Below, in pieces: positions 12,966 to 38,992 of a stretch of 64,000 nt of DNA. Below the pieces are notes generated by a model. The model saw only the letters and a list, made by a program, of their open reading frames with translations. It was not told the origin of the DNA and did not search any database. Positions within the stretch are counted from its first letter, which is position 1. Each line of letters starts with the position of its first letter. Made by a program: the position numbers and the translations under genes. The stretch lies in the sequence record PV946933.1, one strand, 5' to 3'. Source of the stretch: a phage.

Positions 12966-13181
12966 ATGTATAAATTTCGTAAAGGTTTAGCTGATTTTCT
13001 TACAACTGTAACGTTCTTTTTGTTTATGGCAGTTGGAGCTATTTTCCTTATTCCTTTTATTGCTATATTTTTCGTGATTAGCTTAATTTCTCCAGAAAAA
13101 GGCTTATCTTCTAGTGAGTTCAATGAGCGTCTGGATAAAATTACTAACAAACTGAATGCTGTTCTTGATAAAAAGGCTTAA
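12966..13181 (+). CDS. small membrane protein
   Basis: 71 aa from ATG after AAGGG; long hydrophobic stretch. Confidence 0.45.
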   Translation: MYKFRKGLADFLTTVTFFLFMAVGAIFLIPFIAIFFVISLISPEKGLSSSEFNERLDKITNKLNAVLDKKA

Positions 13182-13183
13182 TT

Positions 13184-13495
13184 GTGATTAGTTTTGAGCG
13201 GTATGTGGTAGAGAGTTGGAAGGGTTTTGATATGTTCGGTAATGACTATTATTTCTATGAATGTAGTCTAAATCCTAGTTTTTGGGCTGGACGAGAACGA
13301 GAACTTGAAGAAATTAATAACCGTGCTGAATTGTTAGGTGAATTACCTACGGTTTATTTTACCTTTGATGCATCTGGATTTGTTATCCAGGTTTATTTTC
13401 CTGAAGAAAATTCTGGCGATGATTCTGTTAACCCGCCATACTGGGCTTATCAAGGAATTATTTCTCGTGGAACAAAACTCGAACTTAAAGAATAA
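13184..13495 (+). CDS. hypothetical protein
   Basis: 103-aa ORF with GTG start just after upstream stop. Confidence 0.4.
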   Translation: MISFERYVVESWKGFDMFGNDYYFYECSLNPSFWAGRERELEEINNRAELLGELPTVYFTFDASGFVIQVYFPEENSGDDSVNPPYWAYQGIISRGTKLELKE

Positions 13496-15354: not shown

Positions 15355-15620
15355 AATTTATTAATATTTCTATTACTATTGAAAATTATGGAATTTTCTA
15401 TGTTGACCAATATATGAAAATTTCATTTTTCCCAAATAAGACTGGTGTTGGATATTGGGAAAGCCATGTTTCTGAATTAAATGAAAGCGAATATGTTAGC
15501 ACACATGAAAAGTTTTTAGACTTTTTATATCATGCTGATTTAACTAGTCATTACATAGATATTCATGAATTTAAAAAGATGATGGAGAAAGTGTTCCAAG
15601 CATACTGTTTACTTAGATAA
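15351..15620 (+). CDS. hypothetical protein
   Basis: 89-aa ORF. Confidence 0.4.
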   Translation: MKFINISITIENYGIFYVDQYMKISFFPNKTGVGYWESHVSELNESEYVSTHEKFLDFLYHADLTSHYIDIHEFKKMMEKVFQAYCLLR

Positions 15621-15633
15621 CTGATATCCTCTA

Positions 15634-17192: not shown

Positions 17193-18395
17193 ATGAAAGT
17201 ATGTATTTTTATGGCTCGAGGTCTTGAAGGTTGCGGTGTAACTAAATTTTCTCTTGAGCAGCGTGATTGGTTTATTAAAAATGGTCATGAAGTAACTTTG
17301 GTTTATGCTAAAGATAAATCATTTACTCGTAATTGCGCGCATGATTATAAATCATTTTCAATTCCGGTTTTATTGGCAAAAGAATACGATAAAACGCTTA
17401 AGCTGGTAAATGATTGTGATATTCTAGTTATCAATTCAGTTCCTGCTACTTCAGTCGAAGAAGACACAATTAATAACTATAAAAAAATTATTGATAACAT
17501 TAAACCTTCGGTTCGTGTTGTAGTTTATCAGCATGACCATTCTTCTCTTTCTTTGCGTCGAAATTTGGGATTAGAAGAAACTGTTCGTCGAGCTGATGTT
17601 ATTTTTAGCCATTCTGATAATGGTGACTTTAATAAAGTTTTGATGAAAGAATGGTATCCGGAAACTGTTTCTCTGTTTGATGATATTGAAGAAGCACCGA
17701 CCGTATATAACTTTCAGCCTCCTATGGATATTGCGAAGGTTCGATCAACCTACTGGAAAGATGTTTCTGAAATTAACATGAATATCAACCGTTGGATTGG
17801 TCGTACTACTACATGGAAAGGCTTTTATCAGATGTTTGATTTTCATGAAAAACATCTTAAACCTGCAGGACTAAGTACTATTATGGAAGGTCTGGAACGT
17901 TCTCCAGCGTTCATTCCTATTAAAGAAAAAGGAATTCCATACGAGTATTATCGTCTTCATCAAGTAGACCAAATTAAAATTGCTCCTAATTTGCCGACGC
18001 AAATTCTTGACCGTTATGTAAATAGCGAAATGCTTGAACGCATGAGTAAATCCGGATTTGGTTATCAGCTGAGTAAGTTGGACAAAAAATATCTACAGCG
18101 TTCTTTAGAATACACTCATCTCGAGCTTGGTGCATGTGGAACAATTCCAGTATTTTGGAAATCTACTGGCGAAAATTTAAAATTCCGTGTTGATAATACT
18201 CCATTAATTTCACACGATAGCGGTATCGTTTGGTTTGATGAAAATGACATGGAATCAACATTTGAACGTATTAAAGAACTGTCATCTGACCGAGCTCTTT
18301 ATGATCGCGAACGCGAAAAAGCTTATGAATTTTTGTATCAGCATCAAGATTCAAGCTTCTGCTTTAAAGAACAGTTTGACATTATTACAAAATAA
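17193..18395 (+). CDS. agt: DNA alpha-glucosyltransferase
   Basis: 400 aa; recognised as T4 alpha-gt; GAGGA upstream. Confidence 0.9.
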   Translation: MKVCIFMARGLEGCGVTKFSLEQRDWFIKNGHEVTLVYAKDKSFTRNCAHDYKSFSIPVLLAKEYDKTLKLVNDCDILVINSVPATSVEEDTINNYKKIIDNIKPSVRVVVYQHDHSSLSLRRNLGLEETVRRADVIFSHSDNGDFNKVLMKEWYPETVSLFDDIEEAPTVYNFQPPMDIAKVRSTYWKDVSEINMNINRWIGRTTTWKGFYQMFDFHEKHLKPAGLSTIMEGLERSPAFIPIKEKGIPYEYYRLHQVDQIKIAPNLPTQILDRYVNSEMLERMSKSGFGYQLSKLDKKYLQRSLEYTHLELGACGTIPVFWKSTGENLKFRVDNTPLISHDSGIVWFDENDMESTFERIKELSSDRALYDREREKAYEFLYQHQDSSFCFKEQFDIITK

Positions 18396-28006: not shown

Positions 28007-28387
28007 ATGAAAATCGCTATTTTGGTTATTGCATTGGGTCTTACTGGTTGTGTAGCTCAAGGACCGGTAGTAAATCAGTCTGATGTAGGAAAAATTGTAA
28101 ACTGTTCAAGCAAATTTTATAATCCTAATGTCAAGTGTTATAAAGAAGCTCCAAAACAGACAGTAGAACAAATGCAGGCGAATTTTGACGAAGCTATTCG
28201 TCCAGATGAATCTGCACAAGCATATCGTAATTCAGATGTGATTACGCGTGAAGAAAAAATTGAAAACTACTGCGCCATGCTTTGGGCAAATTGGGCTAAT
28301 AATTACCAATGGCGTACAGGTAAAAACGCTCCGATGGAGTATGTAGTGAATTCTTATAATTCATGTGTAAAAAATTTGACTAAGTGA
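28007..28387 (+). CDS. putative lipoprotein
   Basis: 126 aa; signal peptide with lipobox LTGC; flanked by terminator and promoter upstream. Confidence 0.5.
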   Translation: MKIAILVIALGLTGCVAQGPVVNQSDVGKIVNCSSKFYNPNVKCYKEAPKQTVEQMQANFDEAIRPDESAQAYRNSDVITREEKIENYCAMLWANWANNYQWRTGKNAPMEYVVNSYNSCVKNLTK

Positions 28388-28394
28388 GGAAAAC

Positions 28395-28646
28395 ATGGAA
28401 ACTTTAGTAGCAGGTTCAATTTTTATGGTTTTAGTTTCAGGCGTGTTGGCTATTATTATATACATGCTTCCGTGGTTCATCGCCTTGATGCGTGGGTCAA
28501 AATCGACAGTAGGAATCTTTTTCACATCTTTACTGTTTAACTGGTCAATTATCGGTTGGTTTATTACATTTATTTGGTCAATTGCCGGTGAAACTAAAAA
28601 ATCTGCACAGCAAAACCAAGTAATTATCATCAGAGAGAAGGAATGA
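28395..28646 (+). CDS. imm: superinfection immunity membrane protein Imm
   Basis: 83 aa, two TM helices; between 43 and 42 as in T4. Confidence 0.8.
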   Translation: METLVAGSIFMVLVSGVLAIIIYMLPWFIALMRGSKSTVGIFFTSLLFNWSIIGWFITFIWSIAGETKKSAQQNQVIIIREKE

Positions 28647-28792
28647 AAAGCAAAATTATAGCAGTGCTGCTTTTAATCTTGATGATTATAATAAGTATAT
28701 ACTATAGTGTAACGGTTCCTCTTATGATTCCAACGCTTATTATAGGGTGGAGTTTATTACTGTTACAAGTTAAATATGAATGTATCAATTGA
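28643..28792 (+). CDS. small hydrophobic peptide
   Basis: 49-aa ORF, ATG overlaps imm stop. Confidence 0.35.
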   Translation: MKSKIIAVLLLILMIIISIYYSVTVPLMIPTLIIGWSLLLLQVKYECIN

Positions 28793-28799
28793 GGTTTAA

Positions 28800-29540
28800 A
28801 TGATTAATGACTCTATGACAGTTGAAGAAATCCGTCTTCATTTAGGAATTGCATTAAAGGAAAAAGATTTCGTAGTTGATAAAACTGGTGTTAAAACTAT
28901 TGAAATTATTGGTGCATCATTTGTAGCAGATGAACCTTTTATTTTTGGTGCTCTTAATGATGAATACATTCAGCGTGAACTTGAATGGTATAAATCTAAA
29001 AGTTTGTTTGTTAAAGATATTCCGGGTGAAACACCGAAGATTTGGCAGCAGGTAGCATCTTCTAAAGGCGAAATTAATTCGAATTACGGTTGGGCCATCT
29101 GGTCAGAAGATAACTATGCTCAGTATGATATGTGTTTAGCTGAACTTGGTCAAAATCCTGATTCTCGCCGCGGTATCATGATTTATACTCGTCCATCCAT
29201 GCAGTTTGACTACAACAAAGATGGTATGTCAGATTTCATGTGTACGAATACAGTACAGTACCTGATTCGTGATAAGAAAATTAATGCAGTGGTTAACATG
29301 AGAAGTAATGATTGCTGGGCAGGCTATCGTAATGATTATGCATGGCAAAAATACGTACTAGATAAATTAGTATCTGATTTGAATGCAGGCGACCCATCGC
29401 GGCAATATAAAGCAGGTTCTATTATATGGAACGTTGGAAGTCTTCATGTTTACGAAAATCAGTTTTATTTAGTTGACCATTGGTGGAACACCGGTGAAAC
29501 TCATATTGCTAAAAAGGATTATACTGGAAAATGGAAGTAA
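28800..29540 (+). CDS. 42: dCMP hydroxymethylase gp42
   Basis: 246 aa; recognised as T4 gp42. Confidence 0.93.
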   Translation: MINDSMTVEEIRLHLGIALKEKDFVVDKTGVKTIEIIGASFVADEPFIFGALNDEYIQRELEWYKSKSLFVKDIPGETPKIWQQVASSKGEINSNYGWAIWSEDNYAQYDMCLAELGQNPDSRRGIMIYTRPSMQFDYNKDGMSDFMCTNTVQYLIRDKKINAVVNMRSNDCWAGYRNDYAWQKYVLDKLVSDLNAGDPSRQYKAGSIIWNVGSLHVYENQFYLVDHWWNTGETHIAKKDYTGKWK

Positions 29541-30172
29541 ATGTGCCACATGTTTATAAGTATAAACATCCTAAAACTAAAAAGTGGTATATAGGAAGTC
29601 ACGATGGTCACAACCCGAATTATGATGGTTCGGGTGTAGTTTGGCAACATGCTAAAAAGAAATATGGAATAAAATCCTTTAATAAAGAAATATTATATGA
29701 AGGACCGATGTTTAGACAAGTTGAAGAAATTATTTTAACTTGTTTAGATGCTGCTAATTGCCCGGATTCATATAATTTAAAGAATGAAGCGTGGGGAGGA
29801 AGTTTTCCAGGTAAATTAAATGGAATGTACGGTAAGAAACTATCTCCAGAAGAAAGATATAAATGTGGAAATGCCTTTCGTGGAATCAAGCGTCCTGATC
29901 ATTCTAAAAGAATGAAAGGCGAAGGTAATCCAATGTATGGTAAAAATGAACAGGCATATGGAATTATAAATCGAGCAAAGGAAAATTCTGGTAAAACTTA
30001 TGAAGAAATTTTTGGCGCAGAAAAAGCTAAAATAATTAAAGAAACGATGTCTAAAAATCGTAAAGGAAAACCTCATAATTTGATAGAAAAAATATGTCCG
30101 CATTGCGGACTAAAAGGACGTGGGCCAAATATGACAAGATACCATTTTGACAAATGTAAGGCACTTAAATGA
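29531..30172 (+). CDS. GIY-YIG family homing-endonuclease-like protein with NUMOD3-type repeats (Seg-like)
   Basis: N-terminal VYKYKHPKTKKWYIGSH (GIY-x8-YIG-like); repeated GxxxSxExRxKxSxxxKG segments; overlaps 3' end of gene 42. Confidence 0.55.
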   Translation: MEVNVPHVYKYKHPKTKKWYIGSHDGHNPNYDGSGVVWQHAKKKYGIKSFNKEILYEGPMFRQVEEIILTCLDAANCPDSYNLKNEAWGGSFPGKLNGMYGKKLSPEERYKCGNAFRGIKRPDHSKRMKGEGNPMYGKNEQAYGIINRAKENSGKTYEEIFGAEKAKIIKETMSKNRKGKPHNLIEKICPHCGLKGRGPNMTRYHFDKCKALK

Positions 30173-31011
30173 TTCAATTCGTAATTCCAAGTTATCAACG
30201 CGTAGGGGCAGTTTCTGCCCTTGATATGTTTCCATCTGATTATGAACCACATATTGTAGTACGTAAACACGAAGAAAAAGCTTATTATGACGCTTATGGG
30301 TCTAGAGCTAAAATTATAACTATTCCTGATGATGTTAATGGAATTGCTGGTACTCGTAAAGCAATTACTGATATGTATGCAGGTCAACGAATTTGGATGA
30401 TTGATGATGATACTACTATTCGTATGAGTTCAATGCGAAAGAAAGATGATCGTCGCTGCGTAGATAAAATTAATCAATTAACCCGTGAACAGTTCTATGA
30501 ATTGATTCAATACGTTGAAGATGCCATGGATTGCGGGTATTATCATGGCCATGCTCGTCTACCTATTTTTAAAATTACTTCATCTTGGGGTAATTATCGT
30601 GAAAATTCATATGGATTCACGAATACTTGGTATGACCTCGGGAAACTTACTACAGAACAAATTGGGTATGGAAAAATTGATTTATGCGAAGATATGTATG
30701 CATTTCTCAATTTAATTAATCAAGGTTATCCGCATTTGGCCTTGTTCAAATATCTGGTTGTATCTGGAAAAGCACAAGCTCCTGGCGGATGTAGTTCAAT
30801 TCGTAGTAATTCAAAACATAATAGAGCGCTCGAGCAAATCAATAGAGAGTTTCCAGAGCAAGCTCGTTGGAAAACTTCTAATATTGAAAAACGAAAATCA
30901 TTAGGTGAAGAAGACGAGCCATTAAAGGTTCTTCGTATGTGTGTTTCGCGCAAAGAAAAATCAGAAGCGTTTCATAAGTTTAGTGCTATTCATCCAATAG
31001 CAGTTGATTAA
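30169..31011 (+). CDS. GT-A fold glycosyltransferase (candidate DNA-HMC glucosyltransferase, not T4 beta-gt)
   Basis: 280 aa; IPSYQR near N-terminus and DxD-type IWMIDDDTTI; occupies the slot of beta-gt. Confidence 0.55.
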   Translation: MIQFVIPSYQRVGAVSALDMFPSDYEPHIVVRKHEEKAYYDAYGSRAKIITIPDDVNGIAGTRKAITDMYAGQRIWMIDDDTTIRMSSMRKKDDRRCVDKINQLTREQFYELIQYVEDAMDCGYYHGHARLPIFKITSSWGNYRENSYGFTNTWYDLGKLTTEQIGYGKIDLCEDMYAFLNLINQGYPHLALFKYLVVSGKAQAPGGCSSIRSNSKHNRALEQINREFPEQARWKTSNIEKRKSLGEEDEPLKVLRMCVSRKEKSEAFHKFSAIHPIAVD

Positions 31012-31088
31012 TGCCTAAATTTATTGTGTTATAATTACTTTATCTTTAACCAGTGAGGAAAATATAATGATGCCTATGGAAAAAATGA

Positions 31089-32270
31089 ATGTCTATTGCA
31101 GATTTAAAATCCCGTTTGATTAAAGCTTCCACTTCTAAAATGACTGCTGAACTGACTACATCTAAATTCTTTAATGAAAAGGATGTAATCCGTACGAAAA
31201 TCCCAATGCTTAATATCGCTATTTCTGGCGCGATTGATGGTGGTATGCAGTCTGGTTTAACTATTTTTGCAGGTCCTTCTAAACACTTTAAATCAAATAT
31301 GTCTTTGACTATGGTTGCGGCGTATTTGAACAAATATCCTGATGCGGTTTGTTTATTCTATGATAGCGAATTTGGTATCACTCCAGCTTATTTGCGATCC
31401 ATGGGAGTTGACCCGGAACGAGTAATTCATACACCAATCCAGTCAGTTGAACAACTGAAAATTGATATGGTGAATCAGCTTGAAGCTATCGAGCGCGGTG
31501 AAAAAGTTATTGTATTCATCGACTCAATCGGTAATATGGCTTCTAAGAAAGAAACGGAAGATGCCTTGAATGAAAAATCTGTGGCAGATATGACTCGTGC
31601 TAAATCACTGAAGTCATTATTCCGTATTGTTACTCCTTATTTTAGTATTAAAAACATTCCATGTGTTGCGGTTAACCATACAATTGAAACAATTGAAATG
31701 TTTAGTAAAACCGTGATGACAGGTGGTACAGGCGTAATGTATTCGGCTGATACTGTATTCATTATCGGTAAGCGCCAGATTAAAGATGGTTCCGATCTTC
31801 AGGGATATCAATTTGTTCTAAATGTAGAAAAATCTCGTACTGTCAAAGAAAAAAGTAAATTCTTTATTGATGTTAAATTTGACGGTGGTATCGATCCTTA
31901 TTCTGGATTGTTAGATATGGCTCTTGAATTAGGATTTGTAGTAAAACCTAAAAATGGCTGGTATGCTCGTGAATTTCTTGATGAAGAAACCGGCGAGATG
32001 ATTCGCGAAGAAAAATCTTGGCGTGCAAAAGATACCAATTGCACTACATTCTGGGGTCCTTTATTTAAGCATCAACCATTCCGAGATGCTATTAAACGTG
32101 CTTATCAGTTAGGTGCTATTGATAGTAATGAAATTGTTGAAGCTGAAGTCGACGAATTGATTAACTCAAAGGTTGAAAAATTTAAATCTCCAGAAAGTAA
32201 AAGTAAATCAGCTGCTGATTTAGAAACTGACCTAGAACAGTTAAGTGATATGGAAGAATTTAATGAATAA
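31089..32270 (+). CDS. uvsX: recombinase UvsX (RecA-like)
   Basis: 393 aa; recognised as T4 UvsX. Confidence 0.95.
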   Translation: MSIADLKSRLIKASTSKMTAELTTSKFFNEKDVIRTKIPMLNIAISGAIDGGMQSGLTIFAGPSKHFKSNMSLTMVAAYLNKYPDAVCLFYDSEFGITPAYLRSMGVDPERVIHTPIQSVEQLKIDMVNQLEAIERGEKVIVFIDSIGNMASKKETEDALNEKSVADMTRAKSLKSLFRIVTPYFSIKNIPCVAVNHTIETIEMFSKTVMTGGTGVMYSADTVFIIGKRQIKDGSDLQGYQFVLNVEKSRTVKEKSKFFIDVKFDGGIDPYSGLLDMALELGFVVKPKNGWYAREFLDEETGEMIREEKSWRAKDTNCTTFWGPLFKHQPFRDAIKRAYQLGAIDSNEIVEAEVDELINSKVEKFKSPESKSKSAADLETDLEQLSDMEEFNE

Positions 32271-34508: not shown

Positions 34509-34531
34509 TTATTGATGCTAGTAAAATAGTA

Positions 34532-34574
34532 GTTTACAAGCTGATAGAGTTGTGTTATAGTAATTCTATCAGCT
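34532..34574 (+). promoter_or_regulatory. early promoter embedded in stem-loop (PeSL-like)
   Basis: GTTTAC, -10 TGTTATAGT; 10-bp inverted repeat AGCTGATAGA/TCTATCAGCT brackets the -10. Confidence 0.5.
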
Positions 34575-34593
34575 AATCGCGGAGAAAAGAAAA

Positions 34594-34848
34594 ATGATGC
34601 TAGTTAATAGAGAATATCAGTTTAAATCAGAAGAAGATTTGGAAAAATTCGCAAGTGGTTGTGAACTGAATAGACGCACAGCTAAAGTCATAGGATTAAA
34701 ACCCTTTACAGTTCTAGATTGTGAAGTTTCTAAATTCCGCAGAGGGTGTTCTATTAGCGGTCATGCTCTGGTTGATGGGAACACATTTTTCTTTGTTTTT
34801 AGCGTCAGAGAACTTTTATTGATTAACGAACTTGAGGAAATAAAATAG
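34594..34848 (+). CDS. hypothetical protein
   Basis: 84-aa ORF downstream of hairpin-embedded promoter. Confidence 0.45.
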   Translation: MMLVNREYQFKSEEDLEKFASGCELNRRTAKVIGLKPFTVLDCEVSKFRRGCSISGHALVDGNTFFFVFSVRELLLINELEEIK

Positions 34849-38473: not shown

Positions 38474-38992
38474 ATGGCTTACTTTAACGAATGTTCACAA
38501 TTGATCGAAGGCGCTGATAAAGCTCAAAATGAATACTGGGATATTCTCGGTGATGAAAAAGACCCTCTGCAGGTTATGCTTGATATGCAGAAATCTCTGC
38601 AAGTTCGTTTAGCTAAAGATAAACCTGAATATAACCGTCATCCTGATGATTTGGCTACCGCAGGTGAAGTTGTTGATTGGCTGCGTAATCAGAAAGATTA
38701 TATTGACGATGAATTCCGTGAACTTCTAACTTCTCTTGGCGGTATGAGCAATGGCGAAAAAGATGCATCTGCTGTATGGAAGCCTTGGAAAGCTCAACAT
38801 GGTGAACGCCGTGAAACTCTAATTACTGATTTGTCTCCACAAGACCAGTTGGAAATTAAATTCGAAATGATCGATATTCTTCATTTCGTTCTGAACATGT
38901 TCCAAGGTCTTGGTCTTACGGCTGAAGAAATCTTTAAACTTTATTATCTGAAAAATGCTGAAAACTTCGCTCGTCAAGACCGAGGTTATTAA
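38474..38992 (+). CDS. 56: dCTPase/dUTPase gp56
   Basis: 172 aa from MAYFNEC; recognised as T4 gp56; track ORF starts at TTG. Confidence 0.9.
   Translation: MAYFNECSQLIEGADKAQNEYWDILGDEKDPLQVMLDMQKSLQVRLAKDKPEYNRHPDDLATAGEVVDWLRNQKDYIDDEFRELLTSLGGMSNGEKDASAVWKPWKAQHGERRETLITDLSPQDQLEIKFEMIDILHFVLNMFQGLGLTAEEIFKLYYLKNAENFARQDRGY

Follow-up and report, generated by a model that had tools for sequence, protein, structure and literature searches.

Which enzyme occupies the interval between gene 42 and uvsX in this phage, where T4 encodes its beta-glucosyltransferase (beta-gt), and what kind of modified DNA would that enzyme produce? In the window, as the whole 64,000-nucleotide stretch of record PV946933.1 analysed here is called, an earlier note had described at this place a 280-aa ORF (30169-31011) with the motifs IPSYQR and IWMIDDDTTI, and had put it forward as a candidate for the beta-glucosyl-HMC alpha-glucosyltransferase of phages T2 and T6. 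The gene order found is 42, endonuclease ORF, ba-gt, uvsX, with the following features:

28800..29540, + strand: gene 42, dCMP hydroxymethylase (94% identical to T4 gp42 over 245 aa; Pfam Thymidylat_synt, E 4.6e-15)
29531..30172, + strand: Seg-like GIY-YIG homing endonuclease ORF, 213 aa (PHROG 314 homing endonuclease, E 1.8e-31)
30169..31011, + strand: ORF for a predicted T2/T6-type beta-glucosyl-HMC-alpha-glucosyltransferase (ba-gt, also ggt, g-gt or TAGT), ATG start, 280 aa, GT-A fold
31089..32270: uvsX (91% identical to T4 uvsX)

The glycosyltransferase gene and its relatives

The ORF, its start and both motifs (residues 6-11 and 75-84, respectively) are as previously described, and alignment bears out the proposed candidate: the product is identical to that of the same-slot ORF of T2 (AP018813) at 273 of 280 positions without gaps, and to that of T6 (AP018814) at 271 of 280 with one gap. 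The T2 and T6 proteins (AYD82639.1 in MH751506, BBF63203.1 in AP018813 and AXN58083.1 in MH550421) resemble the window's in their length of 280 aa and their 97-98% identity to it, and their phages share with the window the 42-uvsX slot, the partner genes alpha-gt, 42 and 56, and the lack of beta-gt. In the T2 MH751506 and T6 MH550421 records the gene is named 'ggt, beta-glucosyl-HMC-alpha-glucosyl-transferase', and PHROG 842, which bears the same name, matches the window protein with E 4e-88. On these comparisons, the window gene is almost certainly the T2/T6-type beta-glucosyl-HMC-alpha-glucosyltransferase, which we take to be EC 2.4.1.28; the T2 and T6 genes were reportedly cloned and sequenced in 1993 by Winkler and Rueger (ref 87 of PMC11946311). 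Neither the gene nor its slot is new, this being the usual arrangement in T2/T6-like phages.

How widely is it distributed? A tblastn search with ba-gt returned 690 phage records; of these, 472 reach at least 95% identity and 203 fall in the band of 60-80%. Among the matches listed, the latter band includes T4-like phages of Klebsiella, Enterobacter, Raoultella and Citrobacter at ~63-66% identity, and the lower end is represented by a Serratia phage at 47% and by the weakest matches at ~24%. In many records the gene goes under labels such as 'hypothetical protein', 'glucosyl transferase' or even 'putative beta-glucosyltransferase'.

A cassette difference from T4

By megablast, homology between the window and T4 breaks off where gene 42 ends (29532) and restarts at uvsX (31101), and the T4 interval between the two genes holds b-gt (351 aa) and segA. 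The 42-uvsX interval is therefore a clean cassette difference, with the endonuclease and ba-gt in the window versus b-gt and segA in T4. In the same type of comparison, T2, T6 and Durham phage EL prove collinear with the window, apart from a single local difference, a 643-bp insertion in the window at 29524..30166. At a distance from this locus, three stretches (13167..13490, 15366..15625 and 34511..34847, the last overlapping an 84-aa ORF at 34594..34848) are not matched in T2, T6 or EL by megablast; they probably represent small variable ORFs of the kind usual in the hyperplastic regions of T-even phages.

The earlier assertion that the window protein has no resemblance to T4 beta-gt (NP_049658.1) is upheld by BLASTP, in which the best alignment has E = 3.3 over 8 residues and nothing approaching a full-length alignment was obtained, and by a Pfam search of the protein, which gave no match to a beta-gt family. 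Nor was a homolog detected when T4 beta-gt was compared by tblastn with the whole 64-kb window (best E = 1.3), so that beta-gt has not merely been relocated within these 64 kb. The two enzymes are nonetheless alike in several respects: both occupy the slot adjoining gene 42, both would use UDP-glucose as donor to form a beta-linked product on phage DNA, and both diversify the sugar pattern of 5-hydroxymethylcytosine (hmC) against modification-dependent defences. They differ in fold, T4 beta-gt being a GT-B enzyme (PDB 1JG7) and the window protein a GT-A one, and in acceptor, which is bare hmC for T4 beta-gt and alpha-glucosyl-hmC for ba-gt.

Fold and family

The GT-A hallmarks that had been read from the motifs are borne out by structure comparison. 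The protein forms one Rossmann-like alpha/beta/alpha domain that matches solved GT-A structures, and in the structure model a DXD-type acidic motif, D79-D80-D81, directly follows strand E74-78. Its match to Pfam PF20691 (TET-associated glycosyltransferase, TAGT; E 1.8e-9) covers positions 2-205 of the 205 in the model and scores 38.3 bits, above the gathering threshold of 27.5, and its structural neighbours in BFVD are TAGT-domain proteins. An AF3 model of the T6 TAGT has been described as a GT-A fold that is sister to GT2 (PMC13216743). A sequence search of the PDB returned no relative (best E 0.73, the matches being unrelated RNA-binding proteins), so no solved structure of the ba-gt family can be found by sequence, and no NCBIfam model matches the protein.

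Within the ba-gt family, R11, R63 and D79-D80-D81 are invariant, R11 and the DDD triplet in 48 of 48 relatives. The triplet most likely serves as a DXD motif that would bind metal and UDP; for R11 and R63, contacts with the nucleotide-sugar are, by inference, likely. The same invariant residues are common to PF20691, most of whose members are only 20-30% identical to ba-gt; a TET/JBP-type dioxygenase plays no part here, since gp42 already hydroxymethylates the nucleotide. Cellular inverting GT-A enzymes of the GT2-like kind (AvpGT 9jma, TarP 6h1j, TarS 5tze, cellulose synthase 4p00) reach only 7-16% identity; by comparison with them, ba-gt would act on a sugar carried by duplex DNA, and a membrane domain is absent. 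The identity of the gene, its synteny, its fold and the absence of beta-gt from the 64-kb window are direct results of this analysis.

The inserted endonuclease and the upstream context of ba-gt

The placement of the glycosyltransferase between gene 42 and uvsX stands, but the earlier note leaves out the 213-aa endonuclease ORF (29531..30172) that separates it from gene 42. This ORF overlaps both of its neighbours: its start lies in the final codons of gene 42, and its stop overlaps the start of ba-gt (ATGA). It is missing from T2, T6 and EL (as judged by megablast) and from phage EH2 (as judged by annotation), in all of which gene 42 and ba-gt overlap each other; in the window, this overlap is replaced by the insertion. 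The ORF also has weak matches to NUMOD3 and TIGR01453, and it is 37% identical to T4 SegA over 111 aa. The label 'segD', under which it appears in LR746311, was dropped, as it resembles T4 Seg proteins only at ~35-37% over roughly half of its length. At at least 95% identity it occurs in 78 phage records, and among the matches listed, all records with feature names show it next to gene 42 and the glucosyltransferase.

Does the insertion affect the expression of ba-gt? It alters the upstream context of the gene and could change its expression through translational coupling. A scan of 28300..31400 found 16 promoter-like sites against 14.2 expected and 3 terminator-like sites against 1.5 expected; since these counts are at chance level, they carry no information on the regulation of this region. 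One of the sites flagged as terminator-like is a 9-bp GC-rich stem-loop at 30203..30223 (+ strand; TAGGGGCAG TTT CTGCCCTTG) inside codons 12-18 of ba-gt. As a terminator it was set aside: a proper T-run is absent, the site lies in a coding region and the number of such sites is within chance.

Partner genes and the proposed modification pathway

The acceptor expected for ba-gt is alpha-glucosyl-hmC, and the further genes that would supply it are found in the window:

17193..18395, + strand: alpha-gt, hmC alpha-glucosyltransferase (363/400 identical to T4 alpha-gt, 91%)
38474..38989, + strand (tblastn match): gene 56, dCTPase (EL dCTP pyrophosphatase, 71% identity over 172/172 aa, E 3e-82)

The presence of alpha-gt (17193-18395) and gp42, both named in the earlier note, is confirmed by their respective identities of 363/400 and 94% to the T4 counterparts. 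To the alpha-gt of T2 the window protein is identical at 395 of 400 positions (98.8%), compared with 365 of 400 for those of both T6 and EL, and it is by this measure of the T2 type. No homolog of the endonuclease MobB, whose gene adjoins alpha-gt in T4, was detected in the 64-kb window. Around gene 56, protein identity to EL is 96-99% (Dam 98.5%, gp61 99.4%, soc 96%), and the megablast identity to T6 falls to 76% over the gene 56 stretch; gene 56 looks like a divergent allele within an otherwise conserved region.

In the proposed pathway, gp42 would make hm-dCMP and gp56 would remove dCTP, thereby excluding unmodified cytosine, so that replicated DNA would contain hmC. Alpha-gt would then add an alpha-linked glucose at about three quarters of the hmC residues, thus creating the acceptor for ba-gt, which, with UDP-glucose as donor, would extend this sugar by a second, beta-1,6-linked glucose and so yield gentiobiosyl-hmC. 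The conversion of an alpha-linked donor into a beta-linked product would imply an inverting mechanism. The activity and product attributed here to ba-gt are drawn from the literature on its orthologs, and from these we infer the activity of the window copy and the resulting ratio of modified bases.

In that literature, TAGT is reported to add a glucosyl group to alpha-glucosylated cytosine, giving the gentiobiosyl base (PMC13216743), and is noted to be syntenic with T4 beta-GT (PMC13390438, AEM 2026). The common arrangement is alpha-GT or beta-GT together with TAGT, the pair of alpha-GT and beta-GT occurring in only 6 of 753 genomes (PMC13216743). [quoted passage not shown] Deletion of ba-gt from T6 made the DNA of the mutant susceptible to Brig1 in vitro and increased the sensitivity of the phage in vivo (PMC11078745, Nature 2024, whose main text does not give the coordinates of the deleted gene); a T6 delta-g-gt mutant has been used in a similar way (bioRxiv 2026.02.25.707755).

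Could the enzyme instead act in the manner of beta-gt, with unmodified hmC as the acceptor to which it attaches a first glucose or some other sugar? It sits in the very slot of T4 beta-gt; acceptor sites would exist, given that T2, T6 and the Durham phages leave ~25-33% of their hmC unmodified (PMC13390438, PMC11078745); and some members of the family must act on an acceptor other than glucosyl-hmC, as a TAGT homolog occurs alone, without alpha- or beta-GT, in 288 of 753 phage genomes (PMC13216743). However, beta-glucosyl-hmC is undetected in Durham phages whose enzyme is 98% identical (PMC13390438), the T6 deletion phenotypes fit only the loss of a second glucose (PMC11078745, bioRxiv 2026.02.25.707755), and beta-gt, as a GT-B enzyme, is unrelated to the GT-A window protein in both sequence and fold. 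Such an activity is therefore very improbable. Transfer of a sugar other than glucose, which would give an undescribed modification, could be entertained on the grounds that a GT-A fold does not reveal donor specificity and that arabinose is used by related Straboviridae (PMC13390438), but with enzymes 97-98% identical to the window's found in phages whose gentiobiose is established by chemistry and LC-MS, it verges on the negligible.

Allelic variation and the predicted sugar pattern

If, then, the window enzyme adds the second glucose, how much gentiobiose should be expected? The known phages differ widely in this respect. Virion DNA of EH2 contains ~1/3 5-hmdC, ~2/3 alpha-5-gentiobiosyl-mdC and a trace of the alpha-glucosyl form, and in the Durham phages EL, BGP and Geo the pattern is intermediate, at 1:2:2 (PMC13390438); gentiobiosyl-hmC amounts to 72% in T6 and to ~5% in T2 (PMC11078745), even though the T2 gene is 98% identical to that of the window, so that the ratio of modified bases is not settled by near-identity.

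The EH2 enzyme (TAGT; OZ034684.1, CAL1327621.1), which in its genome is not separated from gene 42 by an endonuclease ORF, is identical to the window's at 275 of 280 residues, and the differences (S23T, K33E, K92R, I101V and S272N) all fall at variable alignment columns. The T2 enzyme equals that of EH2 plus R11H and P251S; it thus differs from the window's by seven substitutions, among them H at position 11 where the window has R, and R11H is present in both independent T2 records (AP018813, 7283..8125, - strand; MH751506, 7286..8128, - strand). T2 and T6 both lack the 643-bp homing endonuclease insertion that lies upstream of ba-gt in the window. The T6 records carry lesions of their own: in AP018814 (7135..7974, - strand) an in-frame 3-nt deletion in GATGATGAT turns the invariant DDD into DD, and in MH550421 (4138..4980, - strand) codon 10 is a stop, with the CDS annotated from M20 (261 aa) and the first beta-strand lost. 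Neither occurs in the window gene, and both may be laboratory-stock mutations or sequencing errors.

As R11 is invariant in the family, R11H is a simple candidate that may explain the low gentiobiose content of T2, an explanation that we did not encounter in the literature reviewed. It is possible, if somewhat doubtful, that single-residue variation in ba-gt, and not the presence of the gene, sets T2-type versus T6-type DNA, in which case the window, combining a T2-type alpha-gt with an R11 enzyme, would be T6-type. The same combination, with neither R11H nor P251S in ba-gt, implies a mosaic ancestry of the two glucosyltransferase genes.

The opposite outcome would be a weak or poorly expressed copy, as apparently in T2, leaving the DNA mostly alpha-glucosylated with a few percent of gentiobiosyl-hmC. 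Besides the precedent of T2 itself, the T2-type alpha-gt, the endonuclease in place of the gene 42/ba-gt overlap and the intermediate ratios of EL, BGP and Geo, which illustrate how much close relatives can differ, all speak for it. Yet the window enzyme has kept the family-invariant arginine that T2 has lost and departs from the high-gentiobiose EH2 enzyme only at variable columns; the stop of the upstream ORF still overlaps the ba-gt start (ATGA), and the occurrence of the endonuclease plus ba-gt arrangement in 78 records indicates a stable configuration. A weak copy thus appears rather unlikely. With all family-invariant residues intact and only five variable-position differences from EH2, the DNA of the window phage is predicted, with moderate confidence, to be T6/EH2-like: about one third hmC, about two thirds gentiobiosyl-hmC and no beta-glucosyl-hmC.

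Significance for phage defence and annotation

By deciding whether hmC bears one glucose or gentiobiose, ba-gt affects sensitivity to modification-dependent defences. In vitro, Brig1 excises alpha-glucosyl-hmC and not gentiobiosyl-hmC (PMC11078745); BapA is likewise unable to remove glucose from gentiobiosyl-hmC, and either form is cut by GmrSD-type enzymes (PMC13216743, PMC11078745, bioRxiv 2026.02.25.707755). Were the single-residue reading true, the contrast between Brig1-sensitive T2-type DNA and resistant T6-type DNA, as seen in vitro, would be set by the variant of the enzyme. The window adds one more genome to the several hundred that carry the same gene, and its practical value lies in a correct annotation and a predicted modification type for reasoning about phage therapy and host range.
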